DNA from: a phage
Sequence record: PZ534511.1
Length of the DNA: 64,000 nucleotides
Reading direction: 5' to 3' (one strand)
Part shown: positions 32,348 to 39,035 of the stretch, one piece after another
Numbering within the stretch: position 1 is the first letter of the stretch
Layout of the letters: every line of letters begins with the position of its first letter
Position numbers and translations under genes: made by a program
The notes under the pieces: model-generated
Databases searched by the model: none
What the model was told of the DNA's origin: nothing
Seen by the model: only the letters and a program-made list of their open reading frames with translations

Positions 32348-32776
32348 TTAATCGTAGTGTGCCAAAATCTCTCCATCGTTGCAAGTTCCCTCTACAAAGT
32401 TATGAAGATTCATGCACTCATCTTGATAGAAGAATTTACCGCTTTTCAGCCGTAGGCCAAACAACTCCGCATCTCCACGATGGCAAGCCTCTACAAGTTC
32501 ATAGATTTCATACGGCAACTCTCCGTCGTCATGGAAGAATCCAGCCTTATCGTTGACATAAATGAAGAAATAATCACTGCTATCGCAAGCGTCCAATATT
32601 TTAAACCAGACTTCATCTACATCTTTTTCTCGGATATCGATCACGCAAGTGGAGCTGCATTCGTACTCCTTCTCCGGCTCCTCGGTCAATACCACCAGGT
32701 AGTTTCCCCGCTTACCTACTTTAGCCATACAACCCCCCTTAAGCTTTAGCCAAAATGGCGCTAAACTCTTCACCAA
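32348..32776 (-). CDS. hypothetical protein
   Basis: Track ORF 142 aa. Confidence 0.45.
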   Translation of the reverse strand: MVKSLAPFWLKLKGGCMAKVGKRGNYLVVLTEEPEKEYECSSTCVIDIREKDVDEVWFKILDACDSSDYFFIYVNDKAGFFHDDGELPYEIYELVEACHRGDAELFGLRLKSGKFFYQDECMNLHNFVEGTCNDGEILAHYD

Positions 32777-33923
32777 ACTCTTTTACAATCTTCATCAGGT
32801 TTGGGTATGCTTTGATCAGCTGAGCAACAATCTTGTCACGCCCTTTACCGATAAGCAAGGCATTTCCTAAGGCATTAGGTTTCATCATCGCCATAAAGAC
32901 TGAGAATACAAAATCTCGGTTCTCGTCCTTGAAGTTTTCCCAAAGGAAATCGAGGAAGTTTGCCACGCAGCTGACAAGATCTTCGTCTGAGATACTTGCA
33001 TTTTCCATCATATTGCGAATAGCGATACAACCTTCAGATCCAAGAATCCACAAAATGTCTGGCTGCTTAGGACCTACGTATTCTTTGCAGCCACCTGCCA
33101 TAATCCGACCGATTTCCGGTAAATTACGTTTCTTGGTGTGGTAAGTCCAGATCTCTACCGCTGCAGTGTGACCAATAGCACCTTGTAGAAGAACACGGGC
33201 CATAGCGTCAGAAATAATACCGCTGTCAAAATCGTGCAAGATGTCAGATGCAGCAACCCAAGATCGTGGTGTGGCAAAAGATGGACAATTAATCTCAGCC
33301 ATAGCCTCATAATTATCAATAGCTGATGGAACTCTTTTCAGATACCCAATTACAGAGGAGTGAACCCCGTTGAGGAATGCGTAGTCCTCAATAAACACCT
33401 CTGCATTGCTTGTAACCTCTACAATGATAAAACGGTTAGCCAGAGGGGCTTCGAGCGCCGAAAGAACCGCACCATCTGTAGAACGGTTACCCGCAGCCAC
33501 AAAAACAGAACCTTTAGGGAATGCATAGGTGCCGCACTTGTGGTCAAGCATAATTTGCATTGCAACCTTTTGCAGGTAGTTATCTGCATGAGTGAGCTCA
33601 TCCAGAAAGATAATTCCGCTCCAGTCAGGATCCGCAGGCCAAAATTCTGGAATTGCAAACACTGTACGTGTAGTTCCATCCGCTTCTACAGGGATAGGTA
33701 GCCCAGATAAGTCGGCAGGATCTTTATCTGACAGTCGCACGTCAACAAGGTTGTCATCTCGCTCACCGAACATATTATCAGCGATCTGCTTCATCACCTG
33801 GCTTTTACCCACACCCATTGGTCCCAAAATTAGGACAGATCGGCTATGACGTTGGGCAAACTGAATAATAGCTGGCAACTCACGGACAGTGATTTGACCA
33901 CTTTCGAATACGTTTCTTGACAT
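32739..33923 (-). CDS. MoxR-like AAA+ ATPase
   Basis: Walker A ILGPMGVGKSQ; Walker B IIFLDELTHAD; size about 390 aa. Confidence 0.65.
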   Translation of the reverse strand: MSRNVFESGQITVRELPAIIQFAQRHSRSVLILGPMGVGKSQVMKQIADNMFGERDDNLVDVRLSDKDPADLSGLPIPVEADGTTRTVFAIPEFWPADPDWSGIIFLDELTHADNYLQKVAMQIMLDHKCGTYAFPKGSVFVAAGNRSTDGAVLSALEAPLANRFIIVEVTSNAEVFIEDYAFLNGVHSSVIGYLKRVPSAIDNYEAMAEINCPSFATPRSWVAASDILHDFDSGIISDAMARVLLQGAIGHTAAVEIWTYHTKKRNLPEIGRIMAGGCKEYVGPKQPDILWILGSEGCIAIRNMMENASISDEDLVSCVANFLDFLWENFKDENRDFVFSVFMAMMKPNALGNALLIGKGRDKIVAQLIKAYPNLMKIVKEFGEEFSAILAKA

Positions 33924-34619: not shown

Positions 34620-34877
34620 TCAGTCCACCTCTTCTTCTCGTTGTAGTTCAAGATACCCGTAGGTCTGGACATCTTGAAGGGTGTGGAACTCCCCCTCTGC
34701 CGCTAAGGCACGAACAACTTGGCACAAAACCTTATGAGGAACTTCATCCAAACCTAGATTCAGTGCAGGAAACACCTTATCTAAGTCAACAAAATAAACG
34801 AACTGTAGCTCACCAGCTTCAAAAGGTGTATCTTCAATAAACATCTTCTCGGCATTAGTCAAGATCTGCACTTTCAT
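34620..34877 (-). CDS. hypothetical protein
   Basis: Track ORF 85 aa. Confidence 0.4.
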   Translation of the reverse strand: MKVQILTNAEKMFIEDTPFEAGELQFVYFVDLDKVFPALNLGLDEVPHKVLCQVVRALAAEGEFHTLQDVQTYGYLELQREEEVD

Positions 34878-35254
34878 TATTCTACCTCCTCTTCTTTTTC
34901 TTCGGCATTAGTTTCATGGCTACCCCACTCGGGAGTTTCCACCTCGATAGTAAACTCACGCACTACACGGTAATTGCCCATGAAGCGCTCTACTTCGTCA
35001 AGGCTTATGGAGAGGCCATTGGCAACCAGGTCTGCAGCACCCTCTTCTACCAGGTAGTCCAGATTGGCTTCCAGAGCCTTAGGTTCAAACCCTGTCAATG
35101 CAATCAGATAACCTTCCCCTTCATCAGGGAGGACAATACAGCCCAATTGATTTTCTTTAAAAAGGCAGTGACCATCATTATTGATTGGGTGTTCATTGCA
35201 GTAAATAGCTGCACGATAAGTAACTTTAGACATCGGTAAGGTCTCCTTAGGCAA
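34877..35254 (-). CDS. hypothetical protein (probable start at MSKVTYRA, near 35233)
   Basis: Internal ATG preceded by AAGGAGACC RBS; its first codons lie within a 28 bp inverted repeat shared with 37072-37099. Confidence 0.45.
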   Translation of the reverse strand: MPKETLPMSKVTYRAAIYCNEHPINNDGHCLFKENQLGCIVLPDEGEGYLIALTGFEPKALEANLDYLVEEGAADLVANGLSISLDEVERFMGNYRVVREFTIEVETPEWGSHETNAEEKEEEVE

Positions 35255-35525
35255 TTGTCATTTTACATTCTTGAAATTTTAACACAAGACGGTGATTGTG
35301 TCTAGTGTCTAAAAAGATTTTTTCAACCATCAGGCACACGGTATAACCGTCCATCTTGTTGACAACAAAATCTCCAGGATGAGGGAGGATGTCTCCCGGA
35401 TTGGGGAAACATAGTCCACTCAGAAAGGCATCGTCAGTGGTGGACTTAATAGATTTCCACACACTGTCTGCCTGAACATGTTCACCGACGTAATATACAT
35501 TACCACATGCCTTCATCATAGTCAA
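35247..35525 (-). CDS. hypothetical protein
   Basis: Track ORF 92 aa. Confidence 0.4.
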   Translation of the reverse strand: MTMMKACGNVYYVGEHVQADSVWKSIKSTTDDAFLSGLCFPNPGDILPHPGDFVVNKMDGYTVCLMVEKIFLDTRHNHRLVLKFQECKMTIA

Positions 35526-36421
35526 ACCCTCGCATAAATTAAACTTGTATCAGTATACTTCTTTAATGGGTAAATATCCTGTCCATAGATGCAATCATTA
35601 AACACCTCATCTACCCAAAGGCTACACTTATATCCCATCATTTCTAAAACACCCATCTCTTCTTCGGTAAACTTATCACCGCTCTTGCAAGATGTCAATA
35701 CCTCATTCTGAACTCTTGCTACCTCGAAGCGGTTATTGGCAATATCGCTATTGGCGATCAAATACTCACCTAGAGGGTGTGCGGCATTAAAGATGCACAG
35801 CGGACGGCTGACGTAATAGTCTCCAGGTGTATAAAAATTGTTGAGGTCTTTCACTAGAACATTCTTATCAGTCACTTCATTTATAACATCATGCATATCG
35901 CACATCTTTATATGTTTGAGGATTCCATCCCCCATCACAAAATAAAAACTTGCTGAGACACTTTCGGCATAGATCTTACTAGATCCGTTGTAGTTGTATT
36001 TTACTCGGATGCTAACGGGGGTTTTTCCTGTCGCGTTAGCCATCATCCAAAGAAATGGCAGCTCATACTTCTCCTCTGAGGAAACAAAAGGTGAGGTAGC
36101 CAGAGATCGAAAACCTCCAGAGAAGTTGAAAGTTACAGAACCGCTCCGGCGGTATGATACCGCGTATTCTACTTTTATATCGACATACCCATTGGAATAG
36201 GTGTGTCCTTCATTATCTAAATATGTCCACTTATCAGACCCAGATACCAATCTACGCTCAATAACCTTCATCACTATAGGAATTAATGGGTTGGTACAAA
36301 CCGCTTTTGAAGTAGCTTTATCATCTAAAGCCTCGTAAATTGCAGAAAGGATGTCCCCAGCTGAAAGATTGGTTGTTATGTCCTGTTTCCACCGCGTACT
36401 AAAACTGTTAAGATTTGCCAT
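35522..36421 (-). CDS. hypothetical protein
   Basis: Track ORF 299 aa; RBS TAGGAGCAC; promoter TTGACT-17-TATAGT at 36452-36480. Confidence 0.5.
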   Translation of the reverse strand: MANLNSFSTRWKQDITTNLSAGDILSAIYEALDDKATSKAVCTNPLIPIVMKVIERRLVSGSDKWTYLDNEGHTYSNGYVDIKVEYAVSYRRSGSVTFNFSGGFRSLATSPFVSSEEKYELPFLWMMANATGKTPVSIRVKYNYNGSSKIYAESVSASFYFVMGDGILKHIKMCDMHDVINEVTDKNVLVKDLNNFYTPGDYYVSRPLCIFNAAHPLGEYLIANSDIANNRFEVARVQNEVLTSCKSGDKFTEEEMGVLEMMGYKCSLWVDEVFNDCIYGQDIYPLKKYTDTSLIYARV

Positions 36422-36497: not shown

Positions 36498-37541
36498 TTG
36501 ATGTTGACATCTGTTGAGACAATTGATACGATTTCTTCACTTACAGAGCACGAGAGACGACTCATGAATCTTGAAAAATATTATACACCAGAAGAGTTAG
36601 AGCGCTTGCTCAAAAAATATAGACGCAAACAGAATAACGCACGGAAACGAGATATAGAGTTCGACCTGTCATGGGAAGAATACCTCCTATTTGGTAAAAA
36701 ACTTTTAGGAGATGGAGTATGCGACTATACCCTTATACCTTTTGACATGCACACAGATGAAAACGGGCTGGGGAATCCTTTCTACCCATCTCTGGAGCGG
36801 ATAGATGATGAAGGTCCTTATGCGGCTGATAACTGTTGTGTGGTGGGATTGAGATGCAACTCTCTAAAGGACTGTCTGGTAGATAAAAAGACTGCAGTCT
36901 TGATTAAAGACGAAACTGATCGAAAAATTGTCCAGCAGATGATGCTCCACCTGAGCGAAGAGCGTATGGAGAAATTGAAAGGTGATTATACTTTTGAAGA
37001 TTTCATCTTGCAATATGGAACGGAAGAGGATAAACTAGCACTCTTTGACGAAGAAGAGGAGGAAGATATGCTACCGATGTCTAAAGTTACTTATCGTGCA
37101 CCCAAGAAGCACATTTCCGACATTGTAAACGAGCCTATCACAGAAGAGATTGAAGAAATGACGCAACAGGTGCATGAAGAGGAAAAAGAGACTCAGGAGG
37201 TCGAAGAGGAGCTTACAGAAGAGGTTCCTGCACTACCTGATGATGTTGAGATTGCCAAAGCTTACACTTTCTATTGTCAAACGTTCTACGATGTAGGTAT
37301 GAAAGTTGATCTGTCATTCAGCCAATTTAAGAGTTCGTATATTCGCAAATGCTGTGCTTTAACTGGTGAACGTCTTGGAGCTGGACTTAAACCCCTGTTG
37401 GTGACCGACTGGAATAAAGGTTTCACTAAAGGAAACTTTATGGTAGTATCTCCAATTATGGAGAAAGCTATGACAGATCTTATGAAGACCACCCGCATGA
37501 CAATGACCGAGTTGGCAGGTATTTTCAAACACGTTAAATAA
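36498..37541 (+). CDS. protein with two tandem degenerate HNH/endonuclease VII-like domains (probable true start about 36564, MNLEKYY...)
   Basis: Internal duplication (DLSWEEY..GVCDYT.. and DLSFSQF..CCALTG..); CxxC..N..CN..K-like remnants; track start is TTG inside the promoter; contains internal MSKVTYRA start-like repeat. Confidence 0.4.
   Translation: MMLTSVETIDTISSLTEHERRLMNLEKYYTPEELERLLKKYRRKQNNARKRDIEFDLSWEEYLLFGKKLLGDGVCDYTLIPFDMHTDENGLGNPFYPSLERIDDEGPYAADNCCVVGLRCNSLKDCLVDKKTAVLIKDETDRKIVQQMMLHLSEERMEKLKGDYTFEDFILQYGTEEDKLALFDEEEEEDMLPMSKVTYRAPKKHISDIVNEPITEEIEEMTQQVHEEEKETQEVEEELTEEVPALPDDVEIAKAYTFYCQTFYDVGMKVDLSFSQFKSSYIRKCCALTGERLGAGLKPLLVTDWNKGFTKGNFMVVSPIMEKAMTDLMKTTRMTMTELAGIFKHVK
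36504..36532 (+). promoter_or_regulatory. sigma70-like promoter (TTGACA-17-TACGAT) driving the plus-strand island
   Basis: Hexamers read directly; overlaps the first codons of the over-extended track ORF. Confidence 0.5.
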
Positions 37542-37553
37542 TGACAGGGGCCA

Positions 37554-39035
37554 ATGGCCCCTTCTGGAGTTTTAATGGATAGCAGAAGTTCAGAAATCAT
37601 TGCCTCGCAGAAAGATGATGCCCTGAGAATGTTGCAGGCTGCACGTATGTATCTCCTTGAAAAGCTGCCGTTTTATGGCACACTACTGTCAGGGTTGCAG
37701 TTCGTAGAAAACCACACATGGTGCTCCACCATGGCAACCGACCATAAACGCATCTACTACAGCCCTGAGTTCATTATGGGGTTGGCGGATGAGCGTAAAA
37801 CCATTCTTAAAGCATCTCTGACTGACAAGCAGTTTGAGATGGCTGAGGTTTTCTATTCCCCAAAATCTGTGAAAGAGGTGGCCTTTCTTCTGTCACATGA
37901 GGTGGGGCATATTATCTGTGATCATCTGGTCCGTGGTAAAAGCTTTGAGCCGGAACTGTTCAATATTGCTTGTGATCACGTTATCAACACAGGTCTTGTG
38001 GTTGACTTTAGCAAGCCTCCTTGTGTTTTCTTCCCGAAGGGGAAAAGCACTGAGTTCGTAAAAGGTAAGCCTTTTGGCTTCTTAGCTAATTGCTACTGCG
38101 ACATGAGGTTTCATGGATGGATTGCTGAGAACGTCTATGCAGTTCTTGATAAACAAAGAGATCAGAATGGCGGTAAAAGTAAGAACGGTAAAGGTGAGAA
38201 CTCCCAAGGAGATAAACGACAAACCGATGATCACATGAGCGGGAACGGTGGCACTAGTGATGATCTTGGAAAGGCTATGGGGTATGATCAGCCGCAACCA
38301 GTAATCAGTCAATCTGACAAAGATCAGGCCATGCAGGACTCTGGTGACATGTTGGAAGCAGCAATGCAAGCTTCAGGAGGTCGTTGCCCCGAGGCGGTGC
38401 GCGAGTTTGTCAAAAACAGAGGCAAGCCTGTAATCAATTATATAGATATTATTAAGCAACGTATGTTATCTAAAAGAAAGGCTGAGTTAACCTACAGAAA
38501 ACCTGGTCGCCGATCTGGGTCTTTGACCACCACAATGCGAAAAGTTGGAGCTATAAACAAGAATCAACACGTTATTGTTCCTGGTCGTAATCCGGAAAAC
38601 ACTATAGATATTGTAGTGGCTTTAGACGTTTCTGGGTCGATCTCACAAAGAACTTTAAAGAAAATGTTCAATGAGATCACCGGGTTGTGCAATTTGTATA
38701 AAGAGTTTAAGGTTACTATGTTCTGTTGGTCAACGGAGGTTGGAGAGGTTAAAGTATACACTCGCGGTAACATCGATGAGATGATTAACTATGAGGTCCA
38801 CTCAACATGGGGCACAACAGCCGCCTGCGTGTTCGAGTATCTGGATGCTAACATACCGAATGCAAAAGATGTCATCGTCCTTACCGACCTCTACTTTGAG
38901 CATAACTTTGAACAAAAGGCTGTTGACAACAAGTGGAAAAAGTACGATACTTTATGGGTTCTCACCGAAGGGTATAATAAAAATTATATCCCGAGCTTTG
39001 GGAAAACTGTGGAATTAATCGAGTACGCTAAGTAA
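37554..39035 (+). CDS. VWA-domain protein with N-terminal HExxH metallopeptidase-like motif
   Basis: HEVGHIICDH motif near residue 115; MIDAS motif VALDVSGSIS in the C-terminal half. Confidence 0.6.
   Translation: MAPSGVLMDSRSSEIIASQKDDALRMLQAARMYLLEKLPFYGTLLSGLQFVENHTWCSTMATDHKRIYYSPEFIMGLADERKTILKASLTDKQFEMAEVFYSPKSVKEVAFLLSHEVGHIICDHLVRGKSFEPELFNIACDHVINTGLVVDFSKPPCVFFPKGKSTEFVKGKPFGFLANCYCDMRFHGWIAENVYAVLDKQRDQNGGKSKNGKGENSQGDKRQTDDHMSGNGGTSDDLGKAMGYDQPQPVISQSDKDQAMQDSGDMLEAAMQASGGRCPEAVREFVKNRGKPVINYIDIIKQRMLSKRKAELTYRKPGRRSGSLTTTMRKVGAINKNQHVIVPGRNPENTIDIVVALDVSGSISQRTLKKMFNEITGLCNLYKEFKVTMFCWSTEVGEVKVYTRGNIDEMINYEVHSTWGTTAACVFEYLDANIPNAKDVIVLTDLYFEHNFEQKAVDNKWKKYDTLWVLTEGYNKNYIPSFGKTVELIEYAK

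Follow-up and report, generated by a model that had tools for sequence, protein, structure and literature searches.

Tandem PacI-type His-Me finger domains, one with its catalytic-type residues and one degenerate, in the Srd-related gp011 protein of rV5-like phages

The open reading frame at positions 36498-37541 (+ strand) of the window, a stretch of phage DNA of 64,000 nucleotides analysed as a whole, raises the question of what its product does. An earlier note on this DNA read the two halves of the protein as duplicated, degenerate HNH or endonuclease VII-like domains and proposed that an inactivated nuclease had been reused as a DNA-binding regulator. Relatives of the gene in GenBank carry the labels "anti-sigma factor", "HNH endonuclease", and "anti-termination protein". 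Three points have to be settled in turn: whether the protein is duplicated and of the His-Me fold, whether either copy is dead, and which of the proposed functions fits the result.

The open reading frame is the conserved gp011 gene of phage rV5, and the window is a Vequintavirus (rV5-like) Escherichia coli phage genome; the 5 kb around the gene share 95-98% DNA identity with more than 100 Vequintavirus genomes. The mechanically called frame begins with a TTG codon at 36498, and the real start is most likely the ATG at 36564, which gives a coding sequence at 36564-37541 (+) of 325 amino acids plus stop that matches the gp011 family (phrog_3118, E=3.6e-113). We prefer this start because a promoter lies inside the TTG extension, because the same ATG is the annotated start in GenBank relatives, and because homologues of 30-60% identity begin at the equivalent position. 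The promoter in question is a sigma-70-like element at 36504-36532 (+) (TTGACA-17-TACGAT with TG), and a divergent sigma-70-like promoter stands back-to-back with it at 36490-36462 (−), both having 10/12 matches in a consensus scan. The PVP-SE1 homologue has an annotated promoter upstream of it, in a place equivalent to 36504-36532, and this element would drive the gp011 gene, which opens a block of rightward genes running divergently from a leftward block. Because the promoter calls rest on consensus matches, early expression of gp011 is a prediction.

Several records call gp011 an HNH endonuclease, which would make it a free-standing homing (mobile) enzyme of a kind that is abundant in phage genomes, and the HNH fold described below and the PHROG labels "HNH endonuclease" and "endonuclease VII" agree with such a reading. 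Against it, the gene keeps a fixed position and fixed neighbors: gene order across the 5 kb is shared by 117 of the 121 Vequintavirus records, and the same genes flank it in the Seunavirus PVP-SE1 and in a metagenomic homologue of only 36% identity. This is the pattern of a vertically inherited core gene, unlike the sporadic occurrence of homing genes. The canonical H-N-H residues are also absent, as are typical homing DNA-binding modules (no Pfam hit). We consider a homing endonuclease extremely improbable and reject it on the synteny.

An AlphaFold2 model built on an alignment of 21 sequences scores a pLDDT that mostly exceeds 90 over residues 1-165 and 225-320, and the C-domain modeled by itself reaches 88. 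In both domains the modeled elements follow in the order long helix, short helix, beta-hairpin, and helix, so that the beta-hairpin followed by an alpha-helix that defines the beta-beta-alpha-Me core fold is present. Foldseek returned PacI at a probability of 0.99. Below PacI, the match lists contain DraIII, McrA, Cas9 HNH, Cap5, TagI, Gme HNH, and GVE2 HNH, and further ZRANB3, Hpy99I, and T4 endonuclease VII, all of them HNH/His-Me nucleases. The similarity to His-Me finger folds that the earlier note had expected is found by structure prediction and by profile-profile comparison alike.

Four regions can be told apart in the protein, all encoded on the + strand. The N-domain core (residues 9-107, 36588-36884; pLDDT mostly above 90) consists of a basic helix and a PacI-type beta-beta-alpha-Me unit. 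It is followed by a helical extension (residues 108-165, 36885-37058), defined by the model and by a hidden Markov model (HMM) alignment and shared in part with T4 Srd, in which the modeled helices span residues 117-129, 132-138, 144-151, and 154-165. Next comes a disordered and strongly acidic linker (residues 166-222, 37059-37229; pLDDT below 50), whose length and sequence vary among homologues, as seen from alignment gaps. The C-domain (residues 223-325, 37230-37538), recognized by profiles and in the model, is a degenerate copy of the N-domain fold. Charge is distributed unevenly along the chain: the net charge is −23 for the whole protein, −6 for the N-domain core, and −20 for residues 153-224, while the C-domain is basic (pI 9.1) and the N-terminal helix of the N-domain is very basic. 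The packing of the two domains against each other has no confidence in the AlphaFold2 monomer (pTM 0.51).

The shared pattern that the earlier note saw in the two halves is real. The N half reads DLSWEEY ... C53-D-Y-T56 ... E78-R79-I-D81 ... Y86 ... N90 ... N99-x-x-K102, and the C half reads DLSFSQF ... C264-A-L-T267 ... D282 ... F287 ... N291, with equal spacings in C-x2-T and in D-x4-[YF]-x3-N; the "N..CN..K" remnant attributed to both halves occurs in the first half only. A direct BLASTP comparison of the halves gave nothing significant (E about 1-2.5). Profiles recover the relationship. Sub-alignments of the N and C halves from a homologue set of 21 sequences, reaching down to 30% identity, matched in the expected register in hhalign (P=5.6e-5), and profiles of 124 sequences per group matched over 84 columns with 97.8% probability and P=1e-12.

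The duplication is further apparent in relatives that carry a single copy. A search of 1.84 billion representative proteins with the C-profile found 365 proteins at E<=0.001; among the 150 of these that were listed, most are 230-330 amino acids long and many have two matched stretches. In a local re-analysis the N+C architecture was present in 156 of 196 collected proteins. About 20 phage proteins of 103-131 amino acids consist of one domain, and in these the N- and C-profiles match the same residues, the former as strongly as 1e-15 to 1e-19 and the latter mostly at 1e-13 to 1e-16. In hhalign the single-domain group matches the C-profile at P=3.8e-26 and the N-profile at P=3.4e-31. The whole length of such a protein (e.g., P0156, P0168, P0183, and P0190) corresponds to the domain found in the window protein, with one copy in place of two. 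These profile results, from hhalign and from the single-domain relatives, show that the duplication is real and old. Searches of Pfam and NCBIfam returned no significant family for the full protein, for its halves, or for the single-domain relatives.

The position of the duplication boundary is a separate matter, and here the earlier note erred in having the second half begin with a repeated MSKVTYRA start. This motif (residues 172-179) falls within the disordered linker, and some 50 residues separate it from the start of the C-domain at about residue 225. It is part of an exact 29-nt repeat, TACCGATGTCTAAAGTTACTTATCGTGCA, at 37072-37100 (+) inside the linker, which encodes (L)PMSKVTYRA; the exact partner copy at 35210-35238 (−) covers a 5-nt leader and the first 8 codons of the minus-strand gene at 34877-35233 (phrog_12908), and the two form a perfect inverted repeat. 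The MSKVTYRA allele of the linker occurs in 28 of 118 related records, the remaining 90 having a segment of 60-80% identity that encodes MSPMQDFKNFMADRA. Its location in a disordered linker and its status as a minority allele rule out MSKVTYRA as a domain boundary or an ancestral gene start. FFH2 has two exact copies of the 29 nt and phage I29 has the gene-start copy alone, and the repeat has the look of a short patch of ectopic gene conversion that the disordered linker tolerates. In-frame ATG codons occur at 37068 and 37077, the former with an AGGAGG motif 5 nt upstream, from which one might speculate that an internal start and a separately translated C-half are conceivable.

Whether the domains are dead depends on which branch of the His-Me superfamily serves as the reference. 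The catalytic His is replaced in both halves, as the earlier note stated, by R79 in the N-domain and by V280 in the C-domain. Position 79, at the end of beta-strand 1, is Arg in 99% of 124 N-domain sequences, and the canonical His is accordingly absent. The His-Me superfamily includes groups without the His (PMC5714182), and the same classification places PacI (PDB 3ldy/3m7k) in its group 20. As described in PMC5714182, PMC4081073, and PMC11529989, PacI is an active nuclease that has "DR" in place of "DH", in which a Tyr from the next loop replaces the His and the metal is bound by an Asp and an Asn.

The window family is related to PacI at the sequence level as well as in fold. A mixed profile made of single-domain proteins and several N-domains (A4) had PacI as its top match in an hmmsearch against PDB sequences (E=0.0028), aligning the family pattern t-l-D-R-i-D-s-n-k-G-Y-v-k-g-N-...-a-N-q-l-K with G-V-D-R-S-D-S-F-E-G-Y-S-P-Q-N-...-C-N-R-I-K of PacI. 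This broader profile was needed: phmmer with the protein and hmmsearch with a narrower alignment (A2) returned only noise from the PDB sequences. The N-profile matched the PacI segment in hhalign with 94% probability and P=9.6e-8, and the C-profile alone was not significant (P=0.18).

In the N-domain the catalytic-type residues are E78-R79 (36795-36800), Y86 (36819-36821), N99 (36858-36860), and K102 (36867-36869), all on the + strand, and D81 and N90 are conserved too. Across the 124 N-domains the respective positions hold E or D in 98% (E 88%, D 10%), R in 99%, Y in 100%, N in 98%, and K in 96%, the N being the metal-ligand position in the core helix. All residues of the PacI set occur together in 123 of 124 N-domains, in 26 of 28 single-domain proteins, and in 0 of 124 C-domains. 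The C-domain keeps C264, T267, D282, and N291, and its catalytic positions are occupied by L279-V280, F287, E300, and M303; E300 aligns with Gln, Ala, or Gly in homologues, which leaves this copy without a metal ligand at that position. Since the PacI set is retained in the N-domain and lost in the C-domain, the term "inactivated nuclease" used in the earlier note fits the second half and does not fit the first, for which loss of activity cannot be deduced from the residues present.

The likeness to PacI has limits. PacI contains two structural Cys4 zinc sites and the window protein neither, with C53 and C264 as its only conserved cysteines, so that C-x-x-C ... C-x-x-C-N of PacI corresponds to C-x-x-T ... 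x-x-x-x-N in the window family. The metal-ligand position that is Asp in PacI is Glu in most N-domains. The active-site residue His42 of PacI is not conserved in the family and aligns with I31 in the window protein; R29, two residues upstream of this position, is 96% conserved, and the three single-domain proteins without R29 have His at the His42-equivalent position. Loss of the Arg and gain of the His may represent a functional swap in these proteins, a very small sample. PacI is a restriction enzyme with TTAATTAA specificity, whereas the window protein is the product of a phage gene that is predicted to be early. The Pfam models of T4 endonuclease VII and of canonical HNH proteins (PF02945 and PF01844) give no match to the window protein, which lacks the catalytic His and the zinc site of T4 endonuclease VII. 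The single Cys that aligns with the first Cys of the PacI zinc knuckle (C53, 36720-36722; C264, 37353-37355) is 97-100% conserved in the N-domain, C-domain, and single-domain groups, and the remaining three zinc ligands are gone.

PacI is an obligate homodimer, and the window protein differs from it in joining an active-type copy and a dead copy in tandem within one chain. Taking the PacI dimer as the guide, the simplest model of the window protein would be an asymmetric pseudo-dimer in which one of the two sites is competent; the single-domain proteins, having one domain only, are presumably homodimeric like PacI. Two metagenomic phage contigs bear on this point. In the first (L011, 2070-2893), an N-type protein of 144 amino acids and a C-type protein of 130 are encoded by adjacent genes with an ATGA overlap; in the second (L012, 956-1778), the N-type gene (150 amino acids) and the C-type gene (127 amino acids) also overlap, and a DUF2201 gene comes next, as it does in the window. 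This arrangement represents either gene fission or a state that preceded fusion, and the adjacency and overlap of the genes in both contigs indicate that the N and C parts probably act together. We infer the pairing of the domains from these fused and split forms.

The closest characterized relative is Srd of phage T4. PHROG comparisons of the N-domain returned "endonuclease" (1.2e-13) and "endonuclease VII" (3.7e-10), together with phrog_4592 "decoy of host sigma70" (4.2e-13), which is probably another Srd-like cluster, and phrog_1400 "Srd anti-sigma factor" (1.5e-10). Residues 3-132 of T4 Srd (NP_049634) match the N-domain and single-domain profiles with 45-70 bits; the HMM alignment takes in the N-domain and reaches some way into the helical extension, and Srd keeps the E, R, D, Y, N, and N residues. 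Both srd of T4 and the window gene lie in early or early-type gene regions of large virulent coliphages. Srd has one copy of the domain and lacks the acidic linker, and its C-terminal half (residues ~133-248) is unlike the C-domain of the window protein. Srd residues 126-248 matched none of the N, C, and single-domain profiles, and a hidden second copy in that half was rejected for want of any signal in this comparison. T4 Srh, Mrh, and ModA.3 showed similarity to neither domain.

Srd binds to the N-terminal half of RNase E, its catalytic part, and speeds the decay of host mRNA (Qi et al. 2015, as reported in PMC13232886, PMC4980113, and PMC7430671), and this effect on decay needs RNase E (Qi et al. 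2015, in PMC13232886 and PMC7430671). The RNase E interaction has been shown for T4 Srd only, and it may not be transferable to the window protein.

These properties of Srd weigh on the regulator reading raised by the earlier note, here spelled out as an inactivated nuclease that would act as a sequence-specific DNA-binding regulator in an anti-sigma, anti-termination, or repressor-like role. Dead His-Me fingers that became DNA-binding regulators do exist, the Smad MH1 domain being one (PMC5714182), and the basic C-domain and the labels "anti-sigma factor" and "anti-termination protein" can be cited in its favor. Judged by PacI, however, the N-domain is not inactivated. Because the N-domain is homologous to Srd, the "anti-sigma" label can be traced to inheritance from Srd's historical name ("similarity with rpoD"), while the activity demonstrated for Srd concerns RNase E and mRNA decay. 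Neither Pfam nor NCBIfam yielded a significant hit, and hence none to sigma, anti-sigma, or antiterminator families, and the PDB sequence search offered only noise for anti-sigma likeness (FliA, E=3.4). We found no evidence that supports a DNA-binding regulator, hold that role to be improbable, and conclude that nothing demonstrated makes the protein an anti-sigma or anti-termination factor.

A further alternative is that the protein is purely an adaptor, as T4 Srd is currently viewed: without catalysis of its own it would bind and stimulate the catalytic half of RNase E, or some other protein of the host, and the His-Me fold would serve only as a scaffold. The dependence of the Srd effect on RNase E and the binding of Srd to the N-terminal half of that enzyme are compatible with it, as is the loss of the canonical His and of the zinc sites. 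The strongly acidic character of the whole protein and of its N-domain core points the same way. Enzymes that act on nucleic acids seldom carry such a charge, which is characteristic of phage factors that bind proteins or mimic DNA. What an adaptor leaves unexplained is the near-absolute conservation of the PacI residues in N-domains and single-domain proteins from diverse phages, at the same positions that drift freely in the C-domain. On this balance a pure adaptor appears unlikely, though it deserves more weight than the regulator.

The reading we favor, and regard as somewhat probable, is that gp011 encodes a two-domain Srd-family protein with a competent PacI-type N-site and a dead C-copy, and that this protein takes part in host shut-off, most likely by way of RNA. 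The protein would be made early from a host-type promoter; it contains two homologous, zinc-less PacI-type His-Me domains separated by the helical extension and an acidic linker of about 60 residues. The dead C-domain would pair with the N-domain or position it, giving an asymmetric counterpart of the PacI dimer in which only one site is competent; the N-domain would engage a nucleic-acid phosphodiester and may well cut it; and, by analogy with T4 Srd, the protein would help to shut off the host, most likely through its RNA. The homology and the layout are established here, and the function is proposed from the sequence, the model, and the Srd analogy. A bolder extension, which we offer tentatively and think doubtful, is that the whole Srd family, T4 Srd included, consists of active Tyr-dependent PacI-type nucleases, of which the rV5-type members would be built-in asymmetric dimers, fused or split, that cut host RNA or DNA. 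Stimulation of RNase E would then lie downstream of the protein's own cleavage or of substrate delivery and would not be simple allosteric activation.

The gene family itself and its loose "HNH" and "Srd" labels were known already. In the literature searched we found no paper that joins Srd to HNH or PacI proteins and no functional study of rV5 gp011; nor did we find there an assignment of the Srd domain, with all its catalytic residues in place, to the His-less branch typified by PacI, or the tandem live/dead architecture and its split-gene variants. A defined architecture can now take the place of three incompatible labels for a core gene that is found in over 100 sequenced phages of the rV5-like group, which are therapeutic candidates. 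The analysis also ties T4 Srd, the stimulator of RNase E, to the PacI branch with the catalytic residues intact, so that simple point mutants of the Y-to-F, N-to-A, and R-to-A kind could tell whether host shut-off factors of the Srd type work as enzymes or as adaptors. The fused and split live/dead pairs are, moreover, a clean case of a pseudo-enzyme partner that arose from tandem duplication.

The surroundings of gp011 yielded several smaller observations. A GC-rich palindrome, GGGGCCAATGGCCCC, at 37547-37561, in the region of the 12-nt gap between the stop codon and the next gene, could form an RNA hairpin or act as a weak terminator. That downstream gene (37554-39035, +) encodes a DUF2201 metallopeptidase/VWA protein, and a MoxR-type ATPase gene, so labeled in relatives, lies at 32739-33923 (−) on the opposite arm of the divergent early region; MoxR-type ATPases and DUF2201 metallopeptidase/VWA proteins are usually paired. 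The gene at 35522-36421 (−) is called "putative alpha 1-3 fucosyltransferase" in relatives, a label that looks unsupported because the product has no Pfam match and belongs only to its own PHROG of unknown function, phrog_12338. Among the GenBank records, 16 that are named "Campylobacter phage" (MG0656xx, host C. jejuni) are 95-99% identical here to E. coli rV5-like phages, and their assignment to a C. jejuni host looks doubtful.
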